Positions 12,003-30,436 of a stretch of DNA of 64,000 nucleotides are shown here, piece after piece (position 1 is the stretch's first letter; the number at the start of each line of letters is the position of its first letter). The stretch spans positions 64,001 to 128,000 of the IMG/VR virus record IMGVR_UViG_3300042384_000211; one strand, 5' to 3'. The translations under genes and the position numbers were made by a program. The stretch comes from a virus. The notes below the pieces were generated by a model, which saw only the letters and a program-made list of their open reading frames with translations, did not search any database and was not told where the DNA came from.

Positions 12003-12316
12003 TAGATTTAGTAAACAAATATGGCTTTCCCATTGTTATGGCAGTGGGCATGGGATTCATCATCAAATTCGTATTCGAATGGGCCACAAAAGAGGTAAAA
12101 CCAGTCATTTCAGACGCAAATACTGTGCTTATTGCCTTGATTGATCGCATACGTATGTTAGACAACGATTTAATACGTTTGAATCAAAAAGTAAACACTG
12201 TGTTACATCTACGTGGTAAGACAATTGAATTTGAACGTGTAGAAGCCGAGAAAGAAATTAATAAAGCACATTTAAAGAATGAAGACGATAAAACTGCAAG
12301 TGGTGGCAGTGACTAA
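11993..12316 (+). CDS. Small single-TM membrane protein (GFPI motif), paralog of 10239
   Basis: YGFPIVMAVGMGF...LIALIDRIRMLDNDLIRL. Confidence 0.7.
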   Translation: MDVVDLVNKYGFPIVMAVGMGFIIKFVFEWATKEVKPVISDANTVLIALIDRIRMLDNDLIRLNQKVNTVLHLRGKTIEFERVEAEKEINKAHLKNEDDKTASGGSD

Positions 12317-13104
12317 TCAACATTAATATCGCTGTTGCTAACTGTTACAGCGATTTTTTGTGCTTCTGGAAAACGTGTACGAGTATTTTTACTACCAAGC
12401 AACACAATCACACGTTGTCCTAACTCAGTATCAAGTAGCATAACCACACAACCGCCACTTTCATTTATATAACCTGTTTTACTTACTCTTACATCATTAC
12501 TATTTCTAACCATTGGATTGGTGTTGCCAAATTGCCACCAACGACGTTTAACTTTGATACTTACATTAGGTTTACCACTAGCTTCGGTAATCTCTGTATA
12601 TTCGTTTGCGGCTAGGACTAATTTACCTAAATCACGGGCATTACTCACATTGCCTGCGTCTAATCCTGTAGGGTCGGCAAATGTGGTACTTGTCATGCCT
12701 AATACAAACGCAATATGATTCATTTCAGCTATACAACGAGCTAGACCACCCGGATAATTTGCGCCTAATGTATATGCGGCAAAGTTATCACTCTTGACAA
12801 TAGCAAGATCAATTAATTCACCACGAGTCAGCTGTTTAACGCTGCGCGGTAACCGAGTGTGATACTTATTAACCATTCTACGATCAAGTGTGATCATTTC
12901 ATCTAAGTTTTGGTTGGCATCTAACACCACCATCACTGTCATTAGTTTAGTAATGCTGGCAATAGGCTGTACACGATCAGCATTCTTTTCTAGTATAACT
13001 TCGCCTGTGTTATCTGCTACTAAAAAACTTTTAGCAGTAATAGGCTTTGCTACTACTGCGGTGCAGAATAGTAGCAGTATGATGAAACTACTTGCTCGTA
13101 GCAT
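12313..13104 (-). CDS. D-Ala-D-Ala carboxy/endopeptidase (peptidase S11, PBP7-like)
   Basis: ASITK (SxxK), SDN, KTG motifs; signal peptide from MLRASSF. Confidence 0.9.
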   Translation of the reverse strand: MLRASSFIILLLFCTAVVAKPITAKSFLVADNTGEVILEKNADRVQPIASITKLMTVMVVLDANQNLDEMITLDRRMVNKYHTRLPRSVKQLTRGELIDLAIVKSDNFAAYTLGANYPGGLARCIAEMNHIAFVLGMTSTTFADPTGLDAGNVSNARDLGKLVLAANEYTEITEASGKPNVSIKVKRRWWQFGNTNPMVRNSNDVRVSKTGYINESGGCVVMLLDTELGQRVIVLLGSKNTRTRFPEAQKIAVTVSNSDINVD

Positions 13105-15100
13105 GATATGTTCCATCAAAATTTGCAGGAACACCCTGTTCCATACGCTCAATCATTAGTTCATAATAATGTTTAATATCAACATCATCGTTGTTGACTA
13201 ATTTTTTAGCCCATACAATAGCCTTGCCCCACGAACCTCGAGTATATTCTTTGCGATACTCTTCGTGCATATACAGATTAGTACGACCAACTGTATAAAT
13301 GTCAAGACCAATTGTTTTACCTTTAACAGCAATGTTATCTAGCCATACTACAGGAAATGCATCTTTACAATACTCAGCAGTTTTAGGACCAATGATTAGT
13401 AGGACACCATATGATTTAGTCTGTCCTTCTAGTCGAGCCGCTGTACTTACACTGTCACCTAATACGTCATAGCCAAACTTGCTCTTAGCACCAATGTTAC
13501 CAATTAAGGTTTCACCAGTGTTGACACCCGCACCCATACCAACTGGCGGACGACCACTGGCTACAAGTTCTACGTTAAAGTCCTCAATGGCTTTGATCAT
13601 TTCAAGTGCTGTCTGTACAGCAGTCTTGGCGTGATTAGCATCATCTAATGGAGCACCGTGTACGTGTAGTGACGCATCACCAATGAACTTAATCAGAGTA
13701 CCGTCGTTCTTAAGTACAGGAATACTCAGTGCTGTCATGTAGTCGTTCATGATCTGTGTGAGACCTTCTACATCATCTCCAAAACTTTCACCGAGTGTAG
13801 TAAAGCCACGTAGGTCAGTCATAACAATTGATAACTCTCGACGTTCACCACCTAACTTAATTAAGTCTGGATTCTTTTGCAAGCGTTCAACAATAGTAGG
13901 GTTAACATAACTACCAAATTGTTTCTTGATCTGTTGTTTCTGTAGGAACTCTGATACAAACTTAACGCCGTAAGCATGTAGCATAACTAGAACTATGCCT
14001 GCCGTTGGTACAATAGCATCAATTAAAAATTTGTAGTGCGAGAACAGGTACATACTAGCAGGAATTAAACTAGCAGTTAATACAATACCTACACCAAGTC
14101 CTACATAGACCCAACGGCTTAAGAACAAGATGATCAAACTGATAGCGATAAGTGCCAACAGTTCAGCACCAGGTGCCCAATCGGGACGTTCAATGTTTAC
14201 ATTGTTGGCTAATGTGCCAATTACAGCGGCCTGCATATCTTGAGGCCACACGTTACCTTTACTTGTTGCTACAGGATTATTAGTACCTGCGGCTGTAGTG
14301 CCCACAATAACAATATTGCCACCAAAATCGTCGGGCAAATCAACTGCCGATACTTGACGATTAGTCTGACTCCAGTCTACCCAGATACGTCCTTGACTGT
14401 CTGTACTGATAGGATTAAAGCCAGGAATACGCATCTTCTCTACACCTTGCGCATTTAACTTAACTTGGAAAGTATTAGTGTTGACTAAGACTCGCAGAAC
14501 TTCTAATGGTATACTAGGATATACATTATTGTCGTAGCCCACAAACAATGGCAGTCTACGGTTAACCCCGTCTATTTCTGGAAATGTGTTAGCAATACCA
14601 ACACCAACAGCATTCTGCTCTAAACTAGGAATGTTAGCAATGATGCCTGGATATTGTACAATAGTGTCAATGTACTCTGAGCCAATAACAGCACTACCTG
14701 GCTTACGTGGAATATTCTTAGTTGCTTGGCCGGGCATGTTGGTTAAGATAACAGGAAAGTCTGTTAATGCTTCAGCAAGGTAAGCATCACCACCTTGTCG
14801 ATCAGTCTCTGGCATCATAACAGTCCAAACAACCAGACCAGCATTATGACTATACAGGTCGCTGATCAGGTCTGCGTAAACATCACGTTTGAATGGCCAC
14901 TGTCCAAACTTGTCTAGAGTGGCTTCATCTATGTTTACAGTGTAGATATTATTTTCTACCGGGGGTTGACTGGTAATAAGCTGATCAAAATATCGTAATT
15001 TAACGCTTTCTACAAACGTAGGACCAGTAATAGTAATACCGACAATCAGTGCTAGGGTTAGGACCGCAGTCCAAGGTGAGAGTAAGATTTTTTTAAGCAT
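13088..15100 (-). CDS. CHASE2-domain class III adenylate cyclase
   Basis: VNIDEATLDKFGQWPF, DGVNRRLP (CHASE2); 3 TM; MTDLRGFT, KFIGDA, YDVLGDSVSTAARLE. Confidence 0.92.
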   Translation of the reverse strand: MLKKILLSPWTAVLTLALIVGITITGPTFVESVKLRYFDQLITSQPPVENNIYTVNIDEATLDKFGQWPFKRDVYADLISDLYSHNAGLVVWTVMMPETDRQGGDAYLAEALTDFPVILTNMPGQATKNIPRKPGSAVIGSEYIDTIVQYPGIIANIPSLEQNAVGVGIANTFPEIDGVNRRLPLFVGYDNNVYPSIPLEVLRVLVNTNTFQVKLNAQGVEKMRIPGFNPISTDSQGRIWVDWSQTNRQVSAVDLPDDFGGNIVIVGTTAAGTNNPVATSKGNVWPQDMQAAVIGTLANNVNIERPDWAPGAELLALIAISLIILFLSRWVYVGLGVGIVLTASLIPASMYLFSHYKFLIDAIVPTAGIVLVMLHAYGVKFVSEFLQKQQIKKQFGSYVNPTIVERLQKNPDLIKLGGERRELSIVMTDLRGFTTLGESFGDDVEGLTQIMNDYMTALSIPVLKNDGTLIKFIGDASLHVHGAPLDDANHAKTAVQTALEMIKAIEDFNVELVASGRPPVGMGAGVNTGETLIGNIGAKSKFGYDVLGDSVSTAARLEGQTKSYGVLLIIGPKTAEYCKDAFPVVWLDNIAVKGKTIGLDIYTVGRTNLYMHEEYRKEYTRGSWGKAIVWAKKLVNNDDVDIKHYYELMIERMEQGVPANFDGTYHATSK

Positions 15101-15111
15101 AAGATTATTTA

Positions 15112-15363
15112 TTATCTGCTTTGACGTAATCGATCTAAATATTCTCGGCCAATCTTACCCTCTTCAAGTTCTTGCAGTGCAGCACTAACAGTACGATTAC
15201 GGTATTTTAGGTTTGAATCAGCATTCTGTGCAATACGTCTAGTAGACTCAATCTCACGTGCTCGTGTAGCGGCAATTAAAATCATTTCAAATCTATTACC
15301 CCCTACATTAACCAATGCCCGATCTACGTCAATTTCTGTGCCTAATTTATCGATGTAACTCAT
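15112..15363 (-). CDS. rpoZ: RNA polymerase omega subunit-like protein
   Basis: GNRFEMILIAATRAREI...ALQELEEGKI. Confidence 0.8.
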   Translation of the reverse strand: MSYIDKLGTEIDVDRALVNVGGNRFEMILIAATRAREIESTRRIAQNADSNLKYRNRTVSAALQELEEGKIGREYLDRLRQSR

Positions 15364-15588: not shown

Positions 15589-15885
15589 ATGAAATTAATC
15601 TTAACAGTATTATTATTAGGTAGTTGTATTACAGCAAATGCTAATCAAGCACTAGCACAAAAAAGTGGTTGTCTGGCATGTCACGCAGTTGATCGTAAAA
15701 TCATAGGACCATCATATCAAGATGTTGCTAAGAAATACAAAGGTCAAGACGTCGAAGCAAAATTAGTAGACAAGGTTAAGAAGGGTGGTAGCGGAGTATG
15801 GGGTCCCATGCCTATGCCAGCACACAGTCCACAGGTTAAAGACGAAGATATTAAAACACTTGTTAAATGGGTGTTAGCGCAGTAA
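15589..15885 (+). CDS. Periplasmic cytochrome c551/c552 (class I)
   Basis: Signal peptide, CLACH, GPSYQDVA, GVWGPMPMP. Confidence 0.92.
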   Translation: MKLILTVLLLGSCITANANQALAQKSGCLACHAVDRKIIGPSYQDVAKKYKGQDVEAKLVDKVKKGGSGVWGPMPMPAHSPQVKDEDIKTLVKWVLAQ

Positions 15886-15886
15886 T

Positions 15887-15912
15887 AAAAAGCCCCTTAA
15901 TTGGGGCTTTTT
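15887..15912. terminator. Bidirectional terminator
   Basis: AAAAAGCCCC-TTAATT-GGGGCTTTTT between convergent genes. Confidence 0.85.
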
Positions 15913-15916
15913 GTTT

Positions 15917-16483
15917 TTATAGTTTACCAACTAGGTCCAAACTTGGTGCTAGTGTAGCACTACCTTCTTGCCATTTAGCCGGGCATACTTCACCCGGATG
16001 TTCACGTGTGTATTTTGCCGCTTTAACTTTACGTAATAGTTCTTTTGCATCACGACCAACACCACCTGGATTAATCTCAATAATCTGTACTACGCCATCT
16101 GGGTCAATAACAAATGTACCACGGTCAGCCAGGCCTTCTAAAGGAATAAGCACACCAAACTGTTCACTTAGCTGATGATTAGGATCACCAATCATTGTAT
16201 ATGTGATGTTACGGATTGTGTCTGTAGCATCTGCCCATGCTTTGTGTACAAAGTGTGTGTCTGTGCTTACGCTGTATACTTCTACACCTAATGCTTTAAA
16301 GTCACTAGCGTATACGTCTTGCAAGTCTGCTAGCTCTGTTGGGCAGACAAATGTAAAGTCTGCTGGATAGAAAAACACCACTGACCAATGGCCTTTTAAA
16401 TCTTGCTCTGTTACTTCTACAAACTGACCTTGACGATATGCTTGTGCTTTGAACGCTTGTACTTCTTTACCGATTAAACTCAT
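15917..16483 (-). CDS. ahpC: Alkyl hydroperoxide reductase C (2-Cys peroxiredoxin)
   Basis: [31 protein letters not shown]. Confidence 0.96.
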
Positions 16484-16568
16484 TTACTTCTCCTTATTAA
16501 ATTGTTAATGTACATATATTATATATTAAAATTTTTAATAAAAAAAGCCCGATTAATAGGTTTTTTTA

Positions 16569-16605
16569 ATTGTATTTTTTAATGACCGCAATAAGTTTTG
16601 TTTAT
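16569..16605. promoter_or_regulatory. OxyR-like operator, copy B, upstream of ahpC
   Basis: ATTG-N7-TAAT-N7-ATAA-N7-TTAT. Confidence 0.6.
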
Positions 16606-16636
16606 AGGTTATGAAGTAACAATGATAAATAACTGT

Positions 16637-17104
16637 ATGAAACATATACATCACATCTTACCTCAATACCTAGGCGGCACTGACGATCCTAGTAACCTAA
16701 TAGAACTTACTGTAGAAGCTCACGCAGAAGCGCATCGCTTATTATACGAGCAACACGGCAATTGGCAAGACTATTGTGCGTGGCAAGCATTGTCCGGACG
16801 TATTGGGCAAGAAGAAATATTAAGGATGAAACAAGGTATGGCTAATAAAGGTAGAAAGCGTACACCAGAACAGATTGAAAATATTAAAGCAGCCGCAAGG
16901 AAACGAGTCGAAAGACATCGCGCTGATGGTACATTAGAACGTGCAGCTATTAAGCAAAGTGCATCAATGAAGGGAAAAGTAAAATCTGAAGAACATATAG
17001 CTAATTGGGCGGCTAGTCGAAAAGGGCATGCGGTATCTGAAGAAACACGAGAAAAAATAAGAAAGACATTAGCAGAAACTAGAGCCAATAAAAAAGCTCT
17101 ATAA
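16637..17104 (+). CDS. HNH homing endonuclease with NUMOD3 repeats
   Basis: HHILPQYLGGTDDPSNLIELTVEAHAEAH; KGHAVSEETREKI; TAAATA at 16626. Confidence 0.85.
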   Translation: MKHIHHILPQYLGGTDDPSNLIELTVEAHAEAHRLLYEQHGNWQDYCAWQALSGRIGQEEILRMKQGMANKGRKRTPEQIENIKAAARKRVERHRADGTLERAAIKQSASMKGKVKSEEHIANWAASRKGHAVSEETREKIRKTLAETRANKKAL

Positions 17105-17114
17105 AAGAGCTTTT
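17092..17114. terminator. Bidirectional terminator
   Basis: AAAAGCTCT-ATAAA-AGAGCTTTT between HNH gene and pqqA. Confidence 0.7.
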
Positions 17115-17132
17115 ATTATCATGTGTTAAATC

Positions 17133-17204
17133 TTAACGATTCATTACATAAAGAGTCACTTCAAAACCGAAACGCATTTCTGTTGCTGCTGGTGTAGTCC
17201 ACAT
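17133..17204 (-). CDS. pqqA: Pyrroloquinoline quinone precursor peptide
   Basis: Own translation MWTTPAATEMRFGFEVTLYVMNR* (23 aa, ExxxY core), AGGAG SD; below the ORF-track cutoff. Confidence 0.93.
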   Translation of the reverse strand: MWTTPAATEMRFGFEVTLYVMNR

Positions 17205-17351
17205 AATAATTCTCCTAGATAAAAGTCTAAAACAACGTTGTGTTGTTACTAGTACTTATACATATAATAACACCAATATGGCCTAAATAACATACGTAAA
17301 ATCATTAAAGACCGATAATTTTCTTGCGATTAGTTTAGATTGCTATATCTG

Positions 17352-17558
17352 TTATTTTTTCAAACACTGTGCGTGTACTTTAAATGTATCAAATTTTAAC
17401 CAATAGGTCAATGATTGTTTAGCATCTTCACATTGCGTTTCATTGGCAAATTCAAGTGTAACCTTGCCCGGTATATCTTTTGGGTCAGTTATGTTTACCA
17501 CTAGTATCAATAGTATCCAACTCATTGGATTATGTGATTCCAGTAGACTATAGCCCAA
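17352..17558 (-). CDS. Small secreted-type hypothetical protein (start probably 17525, MSWILL)
   Basis: Hydrophobic N-term, two Cys. Confidence 0.55.
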   Translation of the reverse strand: MGYSLLESHNPMSWILLILVVNITDPKDIPGKVTLEFANETQCEDAKQSLTYWLKFDTFKVHAQCLKK

Positions 17559-18289
17559 CGCCCATCGTCGTGTTCAACAAGCGCACTACAACTTTCTACC
17601 CAGTCACCATCGTTCATATAGATCATACCGTTGGGCATGTGTTTGATTTCCGGAGTATGTATATGTCCGCAGATTACACCATCGTATCCACGTTTGGCCG
17701 CATAGTCAGTTAGATTAGTTTCAAATTTAAATACAAAGTCTATTGCTTTCTTAACTTTATGTTTGAGATACTTACTAAGACTCCAATAGCCAAATCCCAA
17801 CTTACTTCTGCAGTAGTTAAAATAGTTGTTAAACCATAAAGCTACATCGTAGGCCTTATCACCTAAAAATCCAATCCATGGTGCTAACCTAGTAATACCA
17901 TCAAACATATCGCCGTGTGTAATTAGAAACAATTCTCCATCTACACTGCGATACTCTGCTTGATTAACAATACGTATACGGCCTAGACTAAAATGATGTT
18001 GTACCAGAGGACGGAGGAATTCGTCATGGTTACCGGTCACATAGGTTACATTACATCCTCGTTTACTGTAGCCTAGTATTCGTCGAATAACATTAGTGTG
18101 CGATTGTTTCCATGCCCACTTGTTCTGTTGTATCTTCCACCCATCAATGATGTCACCTATTAGGAATAGATTATCACAGGTGTGATGTTTGAGAAAGTTA
18201 TTCAGCAATTCAGCTTTAGCATCTTTAGTGCCAAGGTGAAAGTCAGATATACAAATTGTTTTGTATCTAATTAAGGGAACAGTGACCAT
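17522..18289 (-). CDS. Metallophosphoesterase, PlcP/LpxH-like
   Basis: ISDFHLG, GDIIDGW, GNHDEFLR, HGD, CGHIH, YMNDGDWVES. Confidence 0.85.
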   Translation of the reverse strand: MVTVPLIRYKTICISDFHLGTKDAKAELLNNFLKHHTCDNLFLIGDIIDGWKIQQNKWAWKQSHTNVIRRILGYSKRGCNVTYVTGNHDEFLRPLVQHHFSLGRIRIVNQAEYRSVDGELFLITHGDMFDGITRLAPWIGFLGDKAYDVALWFNNYFNYCRSKLGFGYWSLSKYLKHKVKKAIDFVFKFETNLTDYAAKRGYDGVICGHIHTPEIKHMPNGMIYMNDGDWVESCSALVEHDDGRWAIVYWNHIIQ

Positions 18290-18371: not shown

Positions 18372-19799
18372 TTAGAAGTTGTACTGCAATTGCACACGTA
18401 GGGCATCTGCTTTAAAGTTAGCATAGTCTTGTTTTGCTATTGTAGTAGCAGTTGCTCCTGTTACTAAATTGCTACGGTTCATCATATGATAGTAAGCCAC
18501 AAGTTCAACTTCTGGAGCAATTTGCCATTCAGCTCCTATCTCCCAATCGTTAACCTTGTTCATCGGTGAGTTAGTTTCTGCTTTTGACGCACCATCAAAG
18601 TATTGCCATCTAACAAATGGAATTAAAGTACCATTAGTATCTAACACTTTGAAGTTGTCAATCTTATACATAGTTTGAATGTAGCCACCGTTTAAGTTAG
18701 TTTCTTTGATAATACCATCAGTGCTAGCAGTAGTATCTAAGCCAGGAGTTTTACCCCAGTTCCACTCACCTTGTAGACCTAATGGCTGTGGGTACATCAT
18801 AAAACTTACACCCACACGTTGATCTTTAAAACCAGTTGTGTTGCCTGCTTCTAATGTTGGTGTTTTAGTTGCGTAAACATTGTTGCCCATATTTTTTCTA
18901 TATGCACTACCTGTTCTTACATACTTGCCCGAGTAACCTTGTACACCAGCTTCGTAGATTTGACCGCTTTCGGTTTTCCATGGGTAAGTAGCACGTGCCA
19001 CAACGTGGTAGTTGTCATTACGATCTTGTTGGTTAGCACCTTGACCATTATAAACACCCAAGGCAACCATACCGTAGTTACCCGAATGTTTTAAACCGCC
19101 GTCTTGAATTTCTTTAAAGAGCTTTTGAACGTTGTCCGGTGTGTAGTAATAAAACGCACCCAAATCACGCTCGTCACGTACTGCACTATTAAATGCGTCA
19201 GCGCGATCAAGTGCTAGACGATTTTGTGAAGATTGTAAGTTTTCAAAGCCATATGGTACTTTACTTTGTCCAACACGAACGCGGTGTACTTTGTCTTTGG
19301 TCAAGTTAACATCACCATAAGCATCACGCAGTTGCGCTACGTTACCTGTGGTACCTGCTGTACTAGCAAAGTCAGGTTGAATATAATAATCCAAACGCTC
19401 ACCAGCTGAACCAGAAATGATCACACGTGCTCGACGGATAAGAAAGTTTTTGTCTTGATCAGCAAGAGAGTTTTTATTACCTACAGATCGATCTGACCAA
19501 AGGTTGACTCCTTCGTCACCACTAAGCATAGTAGTATTGCGCACTTGTAAATAGCCACGAATGTTCATTTTACTAGCCGCATGTACAGTGGTATCTTTTT
19601 CTTTTTTAACTGCGCCTATTTCACCAGTATGGCCTTTGTTTAGCAGTGCGCCTTCTTCTTCTGTAAGTACACCTTTCATAACCAGTGCATTAACAATGTC
19701 TGTGGTACTGTCTGCGTGAGCTTGTTTTAATCCTGCCATTGATAGTGCAAATGCTATTACTACATAATACATTATTGATTTAACTTGTTGTATGGTCAT
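18372..19799 (-). CDS. Phosphate-selective porin OprO/OprP family
   Basis: FLIRRARV, LRDAY, GQSKVPYGFENLQSSQNRLALDR, RDLG, C-terminal QYNF. Confidence 0.85.
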   Translation of the reverse strand: MTIQQVKSIMYYVVIAFALSMAGLKQAHADSTTDIVNALVMKGVLTEEEGALLNKGHTGEIGAVKKEKDTTVHAASKMNIRGYLQVRNTTMLSGDEGVNLWSDRSVGNKNSLADQDKNFLIRRARVIISGSAGERLDYYIQPDFASTAGTTGNVAQLRDAYGDVNLTKDKVHRVRVGQSKVPYGFENLQSSQNRLALDRADAFNSAVRDERDLGAFYYYTPDNVQKLFKEIQDGGLKHSGNYGMVALGVYNGQGANQQDRNDNYHVVARATYPWKTESGQIYEAGVQGYSGKYVRTGSAYRKNMGNNVYATKTPTLEAGNTTGFKDQRVGVSFMMYPQPLGLQGEWNWGKTPGLDTTASTDGIIKETNLNGGYIQTMYKIDNFKVLDTNGTLIPFVRWQYFDGASKAETNSPMNKVNDWEIGAEWQIAPEVELVAYYHMMNRSNLVTGATATTIAKQDYANFKADALRVQLQYNF

Positions 19800-19836
19800 T
19801 AATATTCCCCTTATATATATTATTTAAACACACAAA

Positions 19837-19865
19837 GATTACAGTAATGTTACAAATAGATTAAA
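19837..19865 (-). promoter_or_regulatory. Pho-box-like triple direct repeat
   Basis: TTTAATC-tatt-TGTAACA-ttac-TGTAATC at exact 11-bp spacing upstream of the OprP-like porin. Confidence 0.55.
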
Positions 19866-19888
19866 TTTTTAATACACATAGCCAAAAT

Positions 19889-19910
19889 AAAACCCGCCTC
19901 AGCGGGTTTA
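19889..19910. terminator. Intrinsic terminator
   Basis: AAACCCGC-CTCA-GCGGGTTT. Confidence 0.75.
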
Positions 19911-19924
19911 TTGTTTTGAAGTAG

Positions 19925-20086
19925 TTAGATCCTAACCACTGACCACTTACCATTGAACGGCTTACCTTCGGCCTTGTGTTTCAGTATCTTCGTAAACTCT
20001 TTTTTCTTAAGTTTAACAATGGTTTCTGTATCATGGTCGAGACAAGCACGATATAACTTAGTGAGTAATTTACTCTGTTTCATCAT
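19925..20086 (-). CDS. Small basic hypothetical protein (53 aa, not in ORF track)
   Basis: MMKQSKLLTKLYRACLDHDTETIVKLKKKEFTKILKHKAEGKPFNGKWSVVRI*, AAGGAGG SD, own terminator. Confidence 0.75.
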   Translation of the reverse strand: MMKQSKLLTKLYRACLDHDTETIVKLKKKEFTKILKHKAEGKPFNGKWSVVRI

Positions 20087-20130
20087 GATGTCCTCCTTGT
20101 GTACTATTTACACTAATTGTTAAAATAAAA

Positions 20131-20160
20131 GATTACAATTTAGATTACATATAGATTAAA
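20131..20160 (-). promoter_or_regulatory. Second Pho-box-like repeat
   Basis: TTTAATC-tata-TGTAATC-taaat-TGTAATC (11 and 12 bp spacing). Confidence 0.45.
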
Positions 20161-20183
20161 AAAGCCCCAGTTAAGGGGCTTTT
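20158..20183. terminator. Intrinsic terminator after porin
   Basis: AAAAGCCCC-AGTTAA-GGGGCTTTT. Confidence 0.8.
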
Positions 20184-20208
20184 TAATTATTAGACTAAGA
20201 AGTAAATC

Positions 20209-21420
20209 TTAGAAGAATAAGATAGCACCTGCTGATACTGAACGTGATTTACCTTCTGCACCGTTTTGTGCTTCTGATTTAACGTCTGAGTATTCAGCAA
20301 CTAAGTTCACGTGTTTTGTGAGTGGGTGATAAGCACCAACAGTCCACATTTCGTTTTTCGAAACTAAAGCTGTAGCTGTTTCGCCACTGTTACGATCTAA
20401 TTTACTTTGACCATAACTTAGACCAAGTTTGGTAGCAGTAGGCAATGTGTATGTACCTTGCACGTAGCCGCCATTTGAATCACGACGTTTACCTGTAGCA
20501 TCAAAGCCGTCTAGTAATTGTAGTGAACGGCCAATACCTTTACCATCAAAGTAGTAAGCAGTTAACCCGTATGGACCAGCAGACAAGTTTGTACCAACGT
20601 CCCATGCATAAGCACGGCTGTCGGCGTTAGCACCAGATAGGCCTTCAACTTTTTGTGAAATAGCACTTGACCAAACTTTAGCAGCAATAGGGCCTGCTAG
20701 TGAGTAAGATACTTTACCTTCGAATGCTGGTTGAGCGCCGCCACGTCCTGTTGAAGTAGCTGAAGCAGCTTGTACACCTGCTGTTACTGCATTTAAGTCA
20801 GCTGTTTGAGCATTCCATGCTTGTGTTACACCAGCAGTGAATTGGAAGCCGTCGAAGTTTGGTGATGTGTAGGCAACTTGTGATTTCCAGTCAGCGTACA
20901 TATAACCAGTCCCAATACGACCTAACGTTGTTGTGTTACCAGCTAGTGCACCAGCGCCTGCACCAACACCCAGCAATGTCATGTCGTTAAGGATTGCATC
21001 AGAAGCGTAGATACCTAAATCTTTACCTAGTTTTACACTACCCCATGATTTATCACCGATGGTTAAGAATGCTTGACGATTTTCTTGGTTAGCTGTTTGA
21101 ATACCGGCTTGTGTTGTAGAAGCACCCGGATTGATAGCAATTGTAAAACCGATGTCTAGATCATTTTGACGTGACTTACCAGAAACTGATAATACGTTTG
21201 GTAATAAACCAGTTGTGATATTTGATTCGTTACGTTGACCTGTAGCATTAGGTCCACCTAGACCACCAACTACTGCACTGCCTGTGCCGCGTGTGTTTGT
21301 GTAGTAAGCGTTTACAACGCCACCGATGTCTAGTGTCCAATCACCAGCTGGAATTTGAATGCCAGCGTGAGCAGTTGAATACATACTTGCTAATAATGTT
21401 GCTAATAATAATTTCTTCAT
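20209..21420 (-). CDS. Gram-negative outer membrane porin
   Basis: MKKLLLA signal peptide with AGGAG SD, YTSPNFDGFQF, C-terminal Phe. Confidence 0.88.
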   Translation of the reverse strand: MKKLLLATLLASMYSTAHAGIQIPAGDWTLDIGGVVNAYYTNTRGTGSAVVGGLGGPNATGQRNESNITTGLLPNVLSVSGKSRQNDLDIGFTIAINPGASTTQAGIQTANQENRQAFLTIGDKSWGSVKLGKDLGIYASDAILNDMTLLGVGAGAGALAGNTTTLGRIGTGYMYADWKSQVAYTSPNFDGFQFTAGVTQAWNAQTADLNAVTAGVQAASATSTGRGGAQPAFEGKVSYSLAGPIAAKVWSSAISQKVEGLSGANADSRAYAWDVGTNLSAGPYGLTAYYFDGKGIGRSLQLLDGFDATGKRRDSNGGYVQGTYTLPTATKLGLSYGQSKLDRNSGETATALVSKNEMWTVGAYHPLTKHVNLVAEYSDVKSEAQNGAEGKSRSVSAGAILFF

Positions 21421-21571
21421 TACGATACTTCTCCTTTTATTGGATAACACTAATATGTTATACTATCAGTGTATAGTATTTATAATGATGTGTCAACCTT
21501 TTGTTGTTTTTTGATAACATTGTTGTAAAAATACAACAGTTATTAATACCGTTACAGTATCGATTCTGCTG

Positions 21572-22927
21572 TTATTGCCCTTGTATTACAGTTATTGCCT
21601 GACAGGCACTAGCGCAACTACTATTAATACTGTAAAACTGTTGCACTGTACCTTGCTGATTTAAGTTTAAACTTCTAGCACCTGCTCCACTTAGAGTAAT
21701 GTCAGCCATGTGTGCAGCACTGCCCTGTTGAGTTATGTCTACTGTCTTATTACCGCCACTTACTGTCAAATCTAAGTGGTGATTGCCTGCGTCTTTCTGC
21801 AAGACCGAGACTGTATTAGCATTATTGTTAACTGTCGCGTATACACCCTTGGCGCCGCCTGTACTCTGCTGGATAACATCAACGTTATTATTGTTACCGA
21901 GAATATTTAAATCGGTATAGTTTGCAACAGTTGACGCTGTACCAGATTGGGTTATATCAACTGTATTTGAACTACCATTTCCGTAGTAGTCAACATAGTT
22001 ATTTCTTGTGCCGGTTTGATTTACCACAATGGTATTGTTGTTGCCTATCTGTTCAATGTACACCTGACTGTCCTGTGTTGTCCTATTGATAAAGGCCTGC
22101 ATAGAAGCTGATTTTTCAACGTCTATAGAAAAGGCGGCTGAACTACCGCCACAACATAAACTAGGAGCAACTGGTTCTGCAGGTGGAGCAGTAGACCCGG
22201 CATTAGGAGCCACAGCACCAAATGTCTGCCCATTCAATGCAGTAGTGCCCTGAATTTCATCTATAAACAACATCGGGCTTAGTGCTGTATCACCAAGATT
22301 AAATGAGGCAAATCCTAATATGTACGTACCAGTTTCTGGCACTGTAAAGCGAGCCTGTTGCCACCCAGTTGAACCATAAGAACCTGTAGCATAGTTACCT
22401 GTACCAGGATTAGTAAATCCCAGTAGAGCATAGCGTTGTTGACTGTTGTTTAAGTTAGGAGTAATACCACCATTGGTAGCATGTGTCAGAGTCATCATAC
22501 TGCCGTCATTAAAGGGTGTATAGTCCGTACTTAAATAATTCCAACCAAATGTATATGTGGTTCCTGCTTGTAGAGATATTTCTCGTTTGATCCAAGAAGC
22601 ATTAGTAGGAGTAGCATTACCACCACCTCCATTTTGACTTTGAAATGTTAAGTAGTTTCTTATGGCTGTATTTTCTACTGAAGTTAATCCTAACTGAGTA
22701 GTGGCCGTATTGAACTGCACACTGCCTGTGGGTTGAAGACGACCCATCTTTGTACCATAAGGATTCACTGTCCAATTCTTTCCGCCACCGGGACTGACAC
22801 TGGTAGTGCCCAATACTGTAACATCACCGCCGCTTGCGGTCCAGCCAGTTAAATTGCCAGACTCAAACCCCAACTGGGCCAGAGCATTATTACATATGAA
22901 TAACATAACAAGTGCAATTAATCTCAT
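21572..22927 (-). CDS. Secreted protein: N-terminal beta-sandwich-like domain plus C-terminal curlin-type repeats
   Basis: Signal peptide; GFESGNLTGW domain; VYIEQIGNNNTIVVNQTG, NTVDITQSG, NNVDVIQQ, KTVDITQQG. Confidence 0.7.
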   Translation of the reverse strand: MRLIALVMLFICNNALAQLGFESGNLTGWTASGGDVTVLGTTSVSPGGGKNWTVNPYGTKMGRLQPTGSVQFNTATTQLGLTSVENTAIRNYLTFQSQNGGGGNATPTNASWIKREISLQAGTTYTFGWNYLSTDYTPFNDGSMMTLTHATNGGITPNLNNSQQRYALLGFTNPGTGNYATGSYGSTGWQQARFTVPETGTYILGFASFNLGDTALSPMLFIDEIQGTTALNGQTFGAVAPNAGSTAPPAEPVAPSLCCGGSSAAFSIDVEKSASMQAFINRTTQDSQVYIEQIGNNNTIVVNQTGTRNNYVDYYGNGSSNTVDITQSGTASTVANYTDLNILGNNNNVDVIQQSTGGAKGVYATVNNNANTVSVLQKDAGNHHLDLTVSGGNKTVDITQQGSAAHMADITLSGAGARSLNLNQQGTVQQFYSINSSCASACQAITVIQGQ

Positions 22928-24012
22928 CTGCGTAACACTCCAGAATTCTGTTTAATACGCACTACATTACCACCCGGATCACCCGAACCAATTATAGCCG
23001 AAGCTATGTTGTCATCATGTGTAATTTCAATCGAAGTATTACTTTCGTAGCCCTGTGTTTTAACTTCAGCATAGTGATCTTCGCTTTGGCGGAACGCAAC
23101 GCCTCGACCACGTGCTTGAATAGTATCACCGTCGGGTCGTTCCCATCTCACACAGATATTAGTTGTTGGATTACAACCGGTTTTGCCGCTATCGAAACTG
23201 TAAGGTAGTACCACAGCCTTAGCGTCGGGTTCGTTGTCCATACGCTGTGACATTTGACTGACCTGTATAGCTTCCAATTCTTCTTGTTCTAGTTCGCGTT
23301 TACTTTTTGCCGCGTCTTTACTAGCTCGAATAATTTCTGGCGGGCGAGCAATAATAAGACTGTTGCCAATCTTACCTTCAACTGTATTAATAATAACCGG
23401 AGGACTAGGCATCATGTTAGCACTGGTTACATAGGTACCTTCAAATGCTTTGTCTAGGGTAACTATGCCAGCAAGTGTACTGACTTCAATCTTGCCTACT
23501 TTACATAAGTTTTCTTCTAGCTCGTATTCTTTGATCTTTTCGCCTTCTTTACAGCTAGGTACAAGAATTACTAGACTCTGCCCTGCTTCGTCTACAGTCA
23601 TGTTAAAGTCTGTACCTCGAACAGCAATTGATGCTGTGGGGGTTTTAATGTCTACTCGTTGTGGATTATTTTTAGCAATTTGTCCACTGGCATAACGTAC
23701 TGTGCCCATACCTACTTTAAGAGCTAGCTTGCCTGCATCGGATTTTTTAGGATCAAAAACAAAGTCGTCTATCATTAGTCGACTGTTTTCTGTTATTTTT
23801 ACTTTGGTGTCATCTTTAAATGTAATGTTGCTAACACAGCCGCCTGTAACATAGGTATCCATACTTTCTATGGCGGCACCTTTATTACCAGGCAGGGTCT
23901 GTTTAGCACGCTCTATTGAGCAAGCGGTACCTTTAGTATCGCTTACTGTCCCAATGCCCGCCCATGCGTTAGTAACTGCTACTAAGCATGCTATTGCAAG
24001 CAATAGTTTCAT
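22924..24012 (-). CDS. FecR-domain secreted/periplasmic protein
   Basis: ITFKDDTKVKITENSRLMID, GTVRYASG, IKTPTASIAVRGTDF. Confidence 0.85.
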   Translation of the reverse strand: MKLLLAIACLVAVTNAWAGIGTVSDTKGTACSIERAKQTLPGNKGAAIESMDTYVTGGCVSNITFKDDTKVKITENSRLMIDDFVFDPKKSDAGKLALKVGMGTVRYASGQIAKNNPQRVDIKTPTASIAVRGTDFNMTVDEAGQSLVILVPSCKEGEKIKEYELEENLCKVGKIEVSTLAGIVTLDKAFEGTYVTSANMMPSPPVIINTVEGKIGNSLIIARPPEIIRASKDAAKSKRELEQEELEAIQVSQMSQRMDNEPDAKAVVLPYSFDSGKTGCNPTTNICVRWERPDGDTIQARGRGVAFRQSEDHYAEVKTQGYESNTSIEITHDDNIASAIIGSGDPGGNVVRIKQNSGVLRR

Positions 24013-24015
24013 TGA

Positions 24016-24801
24016 CTATCTCACTATTGCTGATACTGGACTTACTATAGCGCCGCTACTCGAACGAACAGTAATTGTATTATTATTACCGGTTGTGCTG
24101 ATATTAAATGTAGTATCATTTGTACCTTGTTGCTGTGTAGTAATACTGTTAAAATCACCTGTAGTTGAGGTAACTAAACTATGACCAGCACTACCTGCAG
24201 CATCAATTTGTTGTATATTGAATATGTTGTTACTACCACTAATAGTGTTGGTAATATCAGCGTTGCTAGTAGTTACAGTAGTGGTCAATTGGTTACTACC
24301 ACCGTTAATAGTAGTTGATAATGCATTATCACTACCAACAATATTAGTAATCAACATATTAGTACTACCAGTAACAGTTTCAGTAACAGTATTACGCATA
24401 CCATTAGTGTTAGTATCACCGATTGTAAGTTTGCTTTGATTACCGTCACCAGTTAGAGTACTTGTAAAGCTATTATTTCCACCTTTGATGTTGTACTGTG
24501 ATTGGTTATCATCGCCGGTTTGTGTAATAGTAACACCGTTATTGCTACCGTTAATTGTAGCATAATTACTTGTACTAGGTGCTGTTACTGTTAATGTACT
24601 TAGACCTGTTGCGTCAACTGCTACACTACCAGCAATACCACCAACATCGTTTGTGCCGCCGACTTGTTCAATTGTAACAATATTGGTGCTACCTAATTGT
24701 TCAATGTAAACACGGTTAGGTCCTGTTGGACCTGCGGCCATCAATGATGTTGATAACGCTAAAAACATCATACTTACTGTTGCTTTTAAATTATATTTCA
24801 T
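24016..24801 (-). CDS. Curlin-repeat protein (CsgA/CsgB-like)
   Basis: Signal peptide; NRVYIEQLGSTNIVTIEQVG, NNGVTITQTGDDN, NSITTQQQGTN. Confidence 0.75.
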   Translation of the reverse strand: MKYNLKATVSMMFLALSTSLMAAGPTGPNRVYIEQLGSTNIVTIEQVGGTNDVGGIAGSVAVDATGLSTLTVTAPSTSNYATINGSNNGVTITQTGDDNQSQYNIKGGNNSFTSTLTGDGNQSKLTIGDTNTNGMRNTVTETVTGSTNMLITNIVGSDNALSTTINGGSNQLTTTVTTSNADITNTISGSNNIFNIQQIDAAGSAGHSLVTSTTGDFNSITTQQQGTNDTTFNISTTGNNNTITVRSSSGAIVSPVSAIVR

Positions 24802-24834
24802 CGTCGTGCTCCTTGGATTTTTAAAATCCTATTA

Positions 24835-25701
24835 TTATTTTATTGTTTCTAACAGCGGGTATGTTATACCATCTGTTTGTACTACAGGCTTAGGTTCTTC
24901 TTTGTAAGACCAATGCCCTTTACGAACCCCTTCTCGAATAGTAGCAATCACGGCCGCTTTTACTGCTAGGCTTGTTGCTTTATTGATACTTTCATTGATA
25001 CTCATACCAGTTTCAGCTTCGACGGCTTTTGTGCCTTCTTCAACAAACTTTAATACACCAAGTTTGTCCATGTAGCTTAATACTGTTTTAGTAACTGTTA
25101 CAGTTGTTAATACTTCACCTGTATTAACACTTACTGTTCTTAATGTAACCGTTACTGTATCACTTTGGTATTGCGTTTGTGCGCCAATACCTAGTATACG
25201 AACACCACTACCACCCGTAAGCAGGTTACTATCGTAGCCTGTTATACTTCCTTCAACAATAACACCAGCAAACATCATTGGTGGTAATGCCTTAGCTTCA
25301 CGACCTTGATATTGTTCACGCATCTGACGAATCATCTGACGTTCTTTAATCAAATTGTCTAACCCTACACGTTCTAACACAGTAAACCAACGTTGGTCGC
25401 CTACATCTTGTAGGGCGCCAATTAGGTATGCTTCTGCACCTTGCGATACTGCTGTACTAAAACTAGCCACGTTGGGTACATTTTTACGCTGTCCGGTTTT
25501 ATCTAAGAAACTATATACTGCTACCGGAACGGGGCCGCCGCTCGGAGGTAATACCTTATTCTCTGGTTTAGTAAAGTATGTTTCACGTACTATCTCAGGT
25601 TTATCAAATTGCTCACTTGTTATTTGTTCACGGATAGCACTACTTGTTGCACATCCTGTTAACAGTGCGGTTATTAATAAGGATATAAGTGTTTTATTCA
25701 T
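24835..25701 (-). CDS. csgG: Curli secretion channel lipoprotein CsgG
   Basis: LTGC lipobox, VAVYSFLDKTGQRK, FSTAVSQG, VLERVGLDNLIKERQMIR. Confidence 0.93.
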   Translation of the reverse strand: MNKTLISLLITALLTGCATSSAIREQITSEQFDKPEIVRETYFTKPENKVLPPSGGPVPVAVYSFLDKTGQRKNVPNVASFSTAVSQGAEAYLIGALQDVGDQRWFTVLERVGLDNLIKERQMIRQMREQYQGREAKALPPMMFAGVIVEGSITGYDSNLLTGGSGVRILGIGAQTQYQSDTVTVTLRTVSVNTGEVLTTVTVTKTVLSYMDKLGVLKFVEEGTKAVEAETGMSINESINKATSLAVKAAVIATIREGVRKGHWSYKEEPKPVVQTDGITYPLLETIK

Positions 25702-25710
25702 GTATATTCC

Positions 25711-26208
25711 TTAAAAATAAAATGAGCCTGCAGGCACTTTCATTGTTGTAATATTATTAACGTTAGCTAGGTCCTGTATAGTGATGATAATTAACCCATT
25801 ATCATTACCTGCACCCAAACTCCATTGAATACTATTTCCGCCTAAGTTTGGAATATTACCGCATACTACACCCGCTGTAGTACAAGTAGCACCTTCTCCA
25901 AACATACTGTCAGTTAGTTGTTTAGCCAACTGACTATAAATTCTTGATTCCAGATTAGCAATAAAGCGTGCCTGCGGAGTATTAAGTGCAGCAGATTCTG
26001 CTTTATCTCGAATAGCTTCTGCGGCAGATTCGCGCTTGTCTTTTGCTTGATCCTCTAATTGTTTAATCGTAAGGGCATGTATACCAAATCCTTGTCCGTG
26101 AAATGCCGGACTATTAAAGGTGTGTACCATTTCTGCGGCCTGCGCAATATTAGCGCCAGCAGTTAGCACGACGACCATTAAAAGATTGTAGAACATAGAT
26201 TTAATCAT
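25711..26208 (-). CDS. csgF: Curli assembly protein CsgF
   Basis: Mature N-term AEMVHTFNSPAFHG, FIANLESRIYSQLAKQL, adjacent to csgG. Confidence 0.82.
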   Translation of the reverse strand: MIKSMFYNLLMVVVLTAGANIAQAAEMVHTFNSPAFHGQGFGIHALTIKQLEDQAKDKRESAAEAIRDKAESAALNTPQARFIANLESRIYSQLAKQLTDSMFGEGATCTTAGVVCGNIPNLGGNSIQWSLGAGNDNGLIIITIQDLANVNNITTMKVPAGSFYF

Positions 26209-26279
26209 GTGAAAGCCCCTGTTAGTATTATTTAACGGGGGCTCATTGATAAATTATAGTGTATTATTACTTAACCGTT

Positions 26280-26606
26280 TTAGTCGGATACTACTGCTTC
26301 TGCTTCGTTAATACGTCTGATAATTTCTTCGTAAAATGTATCTACCTCACCACCAAATTTACCTATTAGATAATTAGCAGCATCTCGACAGTAACTATAC
26401 TGTTTAGACTGGTATCCGTTAATAAACTCATGATGTAATTTAACCCACGATTCTAATTGTGGCATGTCAGTTAGCGTTATTTTATCTGCAGGTATAACAC
26501 AAAATACTGCCAATGGTTGGCCTTCGACATCTATTGTTTCTAGATCTAGTACTGTGTATTTTTCTCGGAGTTTTCCTGCATTTTCTTTACCGAATATAAT
26601 TTCCAT
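26280..26606 (-). CDS. Hypothetical protein resembling the C-terminal region of the class III cyclase
   Basis: By-eye similarity to the last ~100 aa of 13088..15100. Confidence 0.55.
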   Translation of the reverse strand: MEIIFGKENAGKLREKYTVLDLETIDVEGQPLAVFCVIPADKITLTDMPQLESWVKLHHEFINGYQSKQYSYCRDAANYLIGKFGGEVDTFYEEIIRRINEAEAVVSD

Positions 26607-27143
26607 TTATCTTTTCTCCGTAATGCCTGCTTGTTTGTACACATATTGTACTGCCTGTGCTTGACTTACTGCGTCTTCTAATGCATTGTGTAGGCCTGCT
26701 TTGTTCTTTTCACGTGGGTCACCTAGACTACTTAATAAGGTGCGACTGTCTCGAATCTGCCAAAACTGCCACGGACATGGTAAGCCCATCTGACGATATA
26801 GGTTCTCTAAAATAACAATGTCAAACACAGGACCCTGTGCCCAGATATTATCTGCCCCTACTATAAATCTATTTAATTCTTTTGAAAACTGTTCTAACGA
26901 GATACGATTACCTTCACCAAGTGCTTCTTCACGGACATCTTCTGCTTGATTACCCCACCAAGCAATAGTATTATCATCAACGTGACGCCCTAAGGTGATT
27001 TGCTCATCGATGTCAATACGGAAGTAGATACCGTCTACAATGTCATTTTGATTGTAAGGACTAAACTTGCAAGCACCAAATGTACAGATAGTAGCATCTG
27101 GGCGGGTTGACAAAGTTTCCAAATCGATCATTATATCGGACAT
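26607..27143 (-). CDS. DEDDh 3'-5' exonuclease (RNase AS/ExoVIII-like)
   Basis: MIDLETL, FDIVIL, RDSRT, HNALEDA. Confidence 0.88.
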   Translation of the reverse strand: MSDIMIDLETLSTRPDATICTFGACKFSPYNQNDIVDGIYFRIDIDEQITLGRHVDDNTIAWWGNQAEDVREEALGEGNRISLEQFSKELNRFIVGADNIWAQGPVFDIVILENLYRQMGLPCPWQFWQIRDSRTLLSSLGDPREKNKAGLHNALEDAVSQAQAVQYVYKQAGITEKR

Positions 27144-27622
27144 TATTTGTCACCTTTCAATAATTTTACAGTTTCAGCATGTGCTACACGTTTACGCAAA
27201 CTTGAACTAGAGAAACTGTGATCGCGACCATTAAACACTAGTTCAATGCCACGCACAAAACATTCTGCTTTTCCGGTAAACTCACTGTGCTCATATTCTA
27301 CACCTAGGATACGTACATCTAACGGCAATATTAATAACAGGTCAATTAGGTCTTGTTCTGTTTGATAGATTGCAACTTCATCTACATAACGACACGCGGC
27401 TAATTGGATCTGACGTTCAACAATACTTTGAATAGGTTTATTCTTAGTATCAGGACGGTCGATAGTTGGATCTGTTTGTAGGCCACAAATTAGGTAATCG
27501 CAGTGATTTTTAGCTTCACTTAGCATGGCTATATGCCCGGCGTGCAACATGTCAAAGGTACTAAAGGTTATGCCAATTTTTTTACCATCGGCTTTGAGTT
27601 CTTTGATTTTGTTAAAGATCAT
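27143..27622 (-). CDS. Glycerol-3-phosphate cytidylyltransferase-like
   Basis: TFDMLHAGH, CRYVDEV, HSFSSSSLR. Confidence 0.88.
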   Translation of the reverse strand: MIFNKIKELKADGKKIGITFSTFDMLHAGHIAMLSEAKNHCDYLICGLQTDPTIDRPDTKNKPIQSIVERQIQLAACRYVDEVAIYQTEQDLIDLLLILPLDVRILGVEYEHSEFTGKAECFVRGIELVFNGRDHSFSSSSLRKRVAHAETVKLLKGDK

Positions 27623-27924
27623 GCATCTGGCTCTAGTTTAATCACCAAAGGAAATCCATTAGTGCGAGCTAACTGTGTAACTTCTACACCTTTTTGTTCT
27701 GCCATTTCGTAGGGCAAAACTGCTACTGCGGCTGACCCTTCATCATGAATCTTTTTAGTTATTTCTGAAGCTGTGTCGGCAGAATGATTGAACACTACCA
27801 TAAGGCTTTCAATAACAAATTCCATAGTAGTTACATTATCGTTGAGATACAGCACTTTGAACATAGGAGGTTCTTTCACACCCATATTTACCTGTGGCTT
27901 TACTCTGGTTACGGCTTTGCCCAT
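27619..27924 (-). CDS. clpS: Clp protease adaptor ClpS
   Basis: PPMFKVLYLNDNVTTMEFVI, IHDEGSA, AEQK, GFPL. Confidence 0.92.
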   Translation of the reverse strand: MGKAVTRVKPQVNMGVKEPPMFKVLYLNDNVTTMEFVIESLMVVFNHSADTASEITKKIHDEGSAAVAVLPYEMAEQKGVEVTQLARTNGFPLVIKLEPDA

Positions 27925-27953
27925 ATATGCTTCTCTCTATTTGTGTTGATAAT

Positions 27954-27972
27954 AGGTGGAGTTTCCTCCACC
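27954..27972. terminator. Hairpin/terminator after hsp20
   Basis: GGTGGAG-TTTC-CTCCACC; weak U tract. Confidence 0.5.
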
Positions 27973-27987
27973 CTTATAGTTATTATA

Positions 27988-28452
27988 CTATTTTTCGAAT
28001 GAAATTGCAACCTTTTGTCTAACTGGCTCAGGTATAAATTGAACCAATTTAACTGTTAGGATGCCATTTTTAACGTGCGCTGAGTTGACTTCTACTCCTT
28101 CAGCAAGTTTGATACGTTTGACAAAATCACGAGCAGCGATACCACGATGAATGTACTCTACTGGATTTTCGCGTAATTCTTCAAATGCCTCTTCTAAGCT
28201 AACTTCACGGTTAGTGCCACGGATAACTAATTCACCGTTTTCGATTTCTACATCTAATTCGTCTTCAGCAAAACCAGCTACTGCTAGTTCAATAGCGTAG
28301 TTATTTTCGTTTAGTTTAATTAGATTAAACGGTGGGTAGCCACTGTCCTTACCACGTTGCTCTAAGTGTTGCAGTTGTGCAAACAAATCATCAAAGCCAA
28401 TAGCAAATTTATAGATGCTAGGGATATCAAGGGTTGTGTAAACTTGTTTCAT
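27988..28452 (-). CDS. Small heat-shock protein Hsp20 (IbpA-like)
   Basis: IGFD, YPPFNL, IELAVAGF, YIHRGIAARDF, NGILTV. Confidence 0.93.
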   Translation of the reverse strand: MKQVYTTLDIPSIYKFAIGFDDLFAQLQHLEQRGKDSGYPPFNLIKLNENNYAIELAVAGFAEDELDVEIENGELVIRGTNREVSLEEAFEELRENPVEYIHRGIAARDFVKRIKLAEGVEVNSAHVKNGILTVKLVQFIPEPVRQKVAISFEK

Positions 28453-30371: not shown

Positions 30372-30436
30372 ATATTTCTCCTTTAAGTTAAGCAAGAATA
30401 AATTAATTACGAACCCTATTATAGGCATTCGTATTA
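30372..30436 (-). promoter_or_regulatory. ROSE-like RNA thermometer leader
   Basis: 5' hairpin UACGAAUGCCUAUAAUAGGGUUCGUA, then UUCUUGCUU-aacuua-AAGGAGAA pairing the SD with a bulged G. Confidence 0.65.

Follow-up and report, generated by a model that had tools for sequence, protein, structure and literature searches.

The window analysed here, the 64,000 nucleotides at bases 64001-128000 of a linear 140,799-bp IMG/VR record (G000; CheckV completeness 40%), contains a 23-codon pqqA that is intact and a real member of the PqqA family. It is probably a functional, stand-alone auxiliary metabolic gene belonging to a ~350-kb phage of freshwater Methylophilaceae. The gene, the elements of its cassette and the surrounding genes are arranged as follows:

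12313-15100 and 18372-30428: host-like envelope and signalling genes
15112-15363, minus strand: RpoZ-like gene, 83 aa (RNA polymerase omega TIGR00690, 26.5 bits against a cut-off of 23.6)
15589-15885, plus strand: small c-type cytochrome, 98 aa, with a signal peptide
15917-16483, minus strand: AhpC peroxiredoxin (TIGR03137, 314 bits)
16598-17104, plus strand: free-standing HNH/NUMOD3-like ORF, 168 aa, convergent with pqqA
17087..17120, unstranded: hairpin, with a 9-bp core stem (17092-17100 / 17106-17114) between an A-run and a T-run
17133..17204, minus strand: pqqA, 23 codons and a TAA stop
17212..17216, minus strand: Shine-Dalgarno sequence AGGAG, 7 nt 5' of the pqqA ATG
17205..17521, minus strand: upstream spacer between the LpxH-like gene and pqqA, containing a 68-aa ORF (17352-17558)
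17253..17260, minus strand: TATAAGTA box, one mismatch from TATAAATA, a putative phage promoter
17522-18289: LpxH-like metallophosphoesterase, neighbour of pqqA
18372-19799: phosphate-type porin, neighbour of pqqA

The product of the gene (window 17204..17133, minus strand) is MWTTPAATEMRFGFEVTLYVMNR, with exactly the position and translation given by the original prediction, which had been made from the sequence without database searches. Its proposed identity as PqqA was upheld when the peptide was compared with profile models of the family, as the thresholds of both curated models were exceeded: 37.9 bits against a cut-off of 21.1 for Pfam PF08042 (E 1.7e-9), and 37.1 bits against a cut-off of 20 for the NCBIfam equivalog TIGR02107. 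In a six-frame search of the 140.8-kb record, it was the single PqqA match (35.7 bits), and the E value of 2.4e-9 means this match is far beyond chance. At 23 aa, the peptide is within the range of about 20-40 aa that characterises these ribosomal peptides with a Glu-x-x-x-Tyr motif. The core E-x-x-x-Y is present as Glu15 and Tyr19 (E15-V-T-L-Y19), and the leader pattern W-x-x-P ... E-x-R-x-G is intact (W2, P5, E9, R11 and G13); at the level of sequence, the phage peptide keeps the leader positions by which PqqD would recognise it.

The strong Shine-Dalgarno sequence and the terminator that had been described for this gene were both recovered. The former is kept as TAGGAGA in four related phage loci, the flanks of which diverge; when these four loci are aligned, the Shine-Dalgarno sequence and the ORF alone align, while the hairpin differs in each but occupies the same place. 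Such a ribosome-binding site precedes 99 of the 104 dereplicated viral copies among the matches listed. The terminator corresponds to the 9-bp stem and T-run at 17087-17120, common to pqqA and the convergent HNH gene, with the stop codon of the latter falling in the loop. The structure folds at -12 kcal/mol (z -2.8), and is a terminator-like element that would be usable on both strands between the two genes. Non-homologous hairpins with T-runs are found at the same place in relatives of the locus. More generally, among the matches listed, a hairpin and T-run follow 69 of 104 viral copies, against 17 in shuffles, and 102 of 109 bacterial copies, against 23 in shuffles.

The region 5' of the gene is less simply delimited. 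The original prediction gave pqqA about 150 bp of its own upstream region, which agrees with the 147 nt that separate it from the 68-aa TTG-started ORF at 17352-17558. However, this ORF is unsupported as a gene, as no Pfam or NCBIfam family was found for it, and nor was any similarity to the equally long ORF 5' of pqqA in the related contig L064; otherwise, the spacer runs for 317 nt, up to the stop codon of the LpxH-like gene. A scan for sigma-70 promoters upstream of pqqA found five sites against 8.5 expected from shuffles, and hence a dedicated promoter of this type was not shown, while an Rfam search of window positions 16400-17700 returned nothing credible. Boxes similar to TATAAGTA lie at an equal distance from pqqA in L084, L112 and L064. 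The related motif TATAAATA is enriched between the genes of the record, with seven of its 18 sites being intergenic against 1.4 expected, and nine sites across the whole record lying 10-120 nt 5' of a same-strand ORF. This enrichment suggests promoters resembling the T4 late type, of which the TATAAGTA box is a possible example. As a general feature of viral pqqA, a TATAARTA box was ruled out, being present in six of 104 copies against four in shuffles among the matches listed.

RNA data came from assembled contigs of two freshwater metatranscriptome runs on one sample. Such contigs cannot prove transcription, transcript ends, strand or level, and the depth at pqqA sums many organisms and so cannot rank expression. 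One complete RNA contig of 153 nt corresponds to 17090-17242, covering the pqqA cassette and lineage-specific flanks with 10 mismatches in 153 positions (93% identity); the TATAAGTA box is 11 nt before its start, and its other end is at the hairpin. RNA cover is essentially lacking over the HNH and LpxH-like genes on either side, although uncovered parts prove nothing in contig data. This contig and the TATAAATA enrichment together hint, weakly, at a short pqqA unit that may be transcribed separately. Another RNA contig aligns to the cytochrome c gene with zero mismatches, and RNA contigs from the lake sample join 15902 to 16559, which represents a co-occurring variant without AhpC.

The claim that the gene has a phage setting held, as phage genes flank the pqqA block on both sides. 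The record is 92% coding, with nearly all genes on one strand and a uniform GC content of ~39%. Tail fibres, a virion structural protein (phrog_5838, 746 bits) and a DNA ligase lie on one side of the block, as does GroEL; an RNR, a DnaB-like helicase, an Mtd_N tail-fibre protein and many family-less ORFs lie on the other. The structural protein is 47% identical to that of G001, a 356-kb genome estimated to be 96% complete, the size of which fits a source genome of ~350 kb; the record would then be a fragment of a jumbo phage. The immediate neighbours of pqqA look cellular, and host-like genes continue in the runs at 12313-15100 and 18372-30428, which encode a D-Ala-D-Ala endopeptidase-like protein, a CHASE2 adenylate cyclase, two porins, FecR-domain and curlin-repeat proteins, and DnaK. 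The cytochrome c has homologues of 62-71% identity in each of the five Methylophilaceae genomes examined, and may belong to a periplasmic electron chain taking electrons from methanol dehydrogenase. The RpoZ-like gene, an unusual one for a phage, is also next to a CHASE2 cyclase in L044 and L084, and GroEL and a Lon-like protease are encoded elsewhere in the record.

The same arrangement can be followed in related phages. G002, an independent 72-kb record, is collinear with the window over nearly its full length, and its pqqA occupies the equivalent syntenic position; with this collinearity, and phage genes on both sides, the gene is embedded in a bona fide phage genome, as is expected of an auxiliary metabolic gene. 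Genes from both flanks of the window's pqqA are also found on one contig in L112, and the 4-kb stretch around the gene recurs in at least 14 lake-water metagenomes. Read in the direction of pqqA, the order of pqqA, a variable island, the RpoZ-like gene and CHASE2 is common to the window, L084 and L044/G002. The island 3' of pqqA consists of the inverted HNH gene, AhpC and cytochrome c in the window, a forward HNH gene and three small ORFs in L084, and a SoxYZ fusion in G002. The HNH gene is on the same strand as pqqA in L084 and L112, and convergent with it in the window, as expected of a mobile homing-endonuclease gene. Upstream of the G002 pqqA, at a distance of 6 kb, is a gene for a 624-aa PQQ-dependent dehydrogenase of the methanol/ethanol family (608 bits against 480), adjoined by one for a 946-aa molybdopterin protein whose domains are ordered as in a formate dehydrogenase alpha subunit. 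The G002 island (L311:13989-18783, L312:2070-2789) also holds an outer-membrane beta-barrel protein beside the SoxY-SoxZ fusion. A PqqA was found in one of the 19 larger relatives identified through the structural protein, most of which are fragments, and hence pqqA is accessory in this lineage. The nearest relative, G006, in which the structural protein is 97% identical, is represented by a contig that ends at approximately window position 13988, before the pqqA site.

The gene has no partners from its pathway in the phage. The earlier statement that no other pqq genes lie in the window could be extended to the whole 140.8-kb record, in which profile searches found neither PqqB, C, D or E nor a PQQ-dependent dehydrogenase. 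PqqB, PqqC and PqqE were likewise not found in G000, G001, G002, G005 and G007, where the sole match was to a generic radical-SAM protein scoring 22 bits against a cut-off of 381; as a positive control, the PqqC model found a single copy per genome in five Methylophilaceae genomes. Therefore the phage gene does not have the linkage to pqqBCDE by which members of the PqqA family can be recognised. However, the same is true of much of the host complement. In these five genomes, there are 3-7 PqqA copies per genome to one PqqC, and Methylophilaceae have been reported to carry 3-12 pqqA copies with a single pqqBCDE set (Beck et al. 2014, PMC4109929). Of the 129 bacterial copies listed, 25 precede PqqB (TIGR02108, 402 bits), and at least 76 of the 129 Methylophilaceae copies among the matches listed are orphans. 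Hence the missing linkage is not disqualifying, given how many host copies are themselves unlinked and how far PqqA outnumbers PqqC.

The sequence of the peptide also points to its host. A scan of 185,579 species genomes for the core motif returned at least 120 loci, and nearly all of those listed are in Methylophilaceae or in MAGs of the same order. The commonest bacterial PqqA (48 of the 129 copies listed) differs from the phage peptide by M18L and K23R alone; none of the 129 bacterial copies among the matches listed is identical to the phage peptide, whereas most viral PqqA peptides among those matches are identical to host ones. In GenBank, ten phage records match the peptide, nine from cultured phages and one uncultured, and all nine cultured phages (P19250A, at 91% identity, MEP301, Venkman, MEP401/402 and four Melnitz isolates) infect Methylophilales or Methylophilaceae. 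The bacterial and GenBank phage searches thus agree with the original assignment of the peptide to a Methylophilaceae type, two substitutions from the commonest host form, and support Methylophilaceae as the probable host family. The match lies outside any annotated feature in six of these ten phage records, so the expectation that gene callers would miss so short a gene was also borne out. One of the two substitutions, Leu18, is inside the E-x-x-x-Y core, and occurs in eight of 106 distinct viral sequences (L006, L039, L056, L064, L084, L101, L112 and the window) against none of 129 bacterial copies, among the matches listed.

Viral pqqA extends well beyond this lineage. A looser, degenerate DNA motif scan of IMG/VR found at least 120 contigs, and every one of those listed encodes a PqqA of 23-25 aa. 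The genes around these copies include exonuclease, Sak and Erf annealing proteins, endolysins, DNA polymerase, primase/helicase, major head protein, terminase, and the T4 proteins RegA and gp32. The contexts are diverse, with 788 protein clusters among 1,717 ORFs for the matches listed, and viral pqqA occurs across several unrelated phage lineages. The 106 distinct viral nucleotide versions among the matches listed encode 47 peptides. Over all codons of these copies, pS is 0.57 and pN is 0.10, although the resulting pN/pS of 0.18 is biased by the scan pattern; recomputed for the matches listed on the 14 codons that the pattern left free, pN/pS is 0.25, and it is 0.15 in the C-terminal core, while that of the bacterial copies listed is 0.14. 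R11, G13, E15, T17 and Y19 are invariant in the viral copies listed, but of these R11 alone was free under the scan pattern, by which E15 and Y19 were fixed; the positions that the pattern did not fix, R11, F14 and N22, are 97-100% conserved in the same copies. These ratios show viral pqqA to be under purifying selection as strong as that on host copies. A homologue in the predicted host, together with purifying selection on the viral copies, is characteristic of an auxiliary metabolic gene.

The biochemistry of the pathway suggests how such a gene could be useful by itself. By the established chemistry (references cited in PMC7678222 and PMC9851590), the peptide is presented by PqqD, its Glu and Tyr are cross-linked by PqqE, and the remaining steps to the cofactor fall to PqqB and PqqC, with one PqqA consumed per PQQ. 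Firstly, the small pqqA cassette would be transcribed by the phage during infection. Secondly, the phage peptide would be bound by host PqqD, enabling host PqqE to cross-link Glu15 to Tyr19. Thirdly, host PqqB and PqqC would trim and mature the cross-linked peptide. As one peptide is destroyed for each PQQ made, supply of the precursor by the phage would sustain PQQ: the phage would provide the consumable component to a set of host enzymes that persists beyond the transcription of host genes, so that PQQ, the XoxF/MxaF methanol dehydrogenase and energy production would be maintained once expression in the host declines. This would mirror the strategy of the host itself, which combines many orphan pqqA copies with one enzyme set.

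On the evidence of sequence comparisons, this role in precursor supply is the likeliest, as it would fit the purifying selection, the multi-copy orphan pqqA genes of the host, and the methanol dehydrogenase of a relative. Several points nevertheless count against it. PQQ is a stable cofactor, and it is an assumption that more of it must be made during a single infection cycle. The processing of the phage peptide to PQQ, a phage yield limited by PQQ, and the compatibility of Leu18 with host PqqD and PqqE are presumed rather than observed. Lastly, no PQQ-dependent enzyme was found in the 140.8-kb record, and the gene is accessory in its lineage.

It is unlikely, if conceivable, that a self-contained mini-cassette of phage promoter, Shine-Dalgarno sequence, 23 codons and terminator is exchanged among unrelated Methylophilaceae phages, sometimes with a free-standing HNH homing endonuclease landing on the ultra-conserved pqqA. 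In another improbable account, pqqA would persist or move through the adjacent HNH gene, either as its cargo or, being highly conserved in sequence, as its homing target, without metabolic benefit. The HNH/NUMOD3-like ORF (168 aa) does abut pqqA in the window, and homologues 63-66% identical to it abut pqqA in L084 and L112, where they lie on the pqqA strand and are thus oriented the other way; HNH-type domains are present in ~6 of 150 immediate neighbours of viral pqqA among the matches listed. However, most viral copies among those matches have no nuclease neighbour, and in this lineage the HNH gene is present in some members and absent from others, with pqqA staying at one syntenic site. 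Nor does mobility alone explain purifying selection on amino acids alongside near-saturated synonymous sites.

It is similarly improbable that pqqA is a neutral passenger or recombination anchor, recently captured from the host, that has no role in infection beyond, perhaps, its homology to the many host pqqA copies. Such an origin would be consistent with its accessory status, and with a location among host-derived genes, such as those for AhpC, cytochrome c and porins, in a hypervariable island. Yet a recent passenger would not be expected to exist as 106 nucleotide versions encoding 47 peptides with a pN/pS of 0.15-0.25 on free codons (among the matches listed), nor to be found in unrelated phage lineages and in all the cultured methylophages returned. 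As an anchor, its best identity to the sampled bacterial copies, 86% over 72 nt, is too low and too short for efficient recombination.

There is still less to recommend the proposal that the phage PqqA is a decoy, occupying host PqqD or PqqE without yielding PQQ, or that it serves another pathway. The restriction of Leu18 within the core to viral copies, among the matches listed, is the observation in its favour. Against this, Glu15, Tyr19 and all conserved leader positions are kept, most viral peptides among the matches listed are identical to host ones, and relatives pair pqqA with a PQQ-dependent dehydrogenase, such that blocking PQQ would be self-defeating. Finally, the cellular-looking neighbours (porins, AhpC, cytochrome c, LpxH-like, RpoZ-like and DnaK), and the breaking of short metagenome contigs at pqqA because many genomes share it, might suggest contamination by host DNA, or a chimera joined where a repeat is conserved, but the uniform GC and phage genes on both sides, the collinearity of the independent G002, in which pqqA is likewise placed, across the entire region, the joining of both flanks in L112, and the recurrence of the stretch in many samples make such an artefact extremely improbable.

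The supply of a precursor therefore being the preferred reading, the phage gene can be compared with known systems. The classical auxiliary metabolic gene psbA of cyanophages re-supplies a rapidly consumed host component, such that energy metabolism continues during infection. The same logic of re-supply could apply here, although the product would be a sacrificial peptide substrate of a cofactor pathway, a role that is inferred, rather than an enzyme or structural subunit. Closer precedents exist, and hence the novelty implied by the original prediction was overrated: viral PqqA and methanol dehydrogenase were described in 2020 in Lake Baikal viruses assigned to Methylophilaceae, for which the same role, a boost of PQQ for methanol dehydrogenase, was proposed (Coutinho et al. 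2020, Microbiome 8:163, PMC7678222). A search of one literature collection found no further paper joining pqqA, viruses and Methylophilaceae. The Baikal VP_266 phages (PMC7678222) are likewise from freshwater, assigned to Methylophilaceae and encode PqqA, and as in G002 they also encode a methanol dehydrogenase, whereas the 140.8 kb of the record do not. They also differ in being T4-like scaffolds of 35% GC, rather than a fragment of a ~350-kb phage of 39% GC.

The orphan pqqA genes of Methylophilaceae (PMC4109929) resemble the window copy in being of the same 23-aa type, standing alone with a Shine-Dalgarno sequence, a hairpin and a T-run, and not lying beside pqqB. Unlike them, the window copy is phage-borne, has a phage-like upstream region, and combines Leu18 with Arg23, a pairing found in none of the 129 bacterial copies among the matches listed. 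The cultured methylophages (P19250A, Venkman, MEP301, MEP401/402 and Melnitz) similarly carry a full-length PqqA, at 73-91% identity, mostly without an annotated feature, and their hosts are experimentally known Methylophilales. These phages, however, are of 35-142 kb and belong to other lineages, whereas here the gene is in a host-derived envelope and redox island of a jumbo phage. What sets this instance apart is that the gene is in a jumbo phage, that position 18 is Leu, that an HNH gene lies next to pqqA, and that the surrounding island of redox and envelope genes is host-derived.

This work therefore adds a jumbo-phage example to a published class of phage-borne PqqA, and nothing new in principle. 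Precursor-only supply is nevertheless an unusual strategy for a helper gene, as it encodes a sacrificial substrate rather than an enzyme, and a phage pqqA would provide a clean test of whether cofactor supply limits phage production. At 72 nt, below the thresholds of gene callers, pqqA is also a good host marker for phages of Methylophilaceae; were the cassette exchanged between phages, pqqA would mark methylotroph phages almost universally, and would be a hotspot of gene flow from phage to phage. Together with the methanol and formate dehydrogenase genes of G002, it shows that parts of the machinery of C1 oxidation are carried by phages whose hosts are abundant freshwater methylotrophs.
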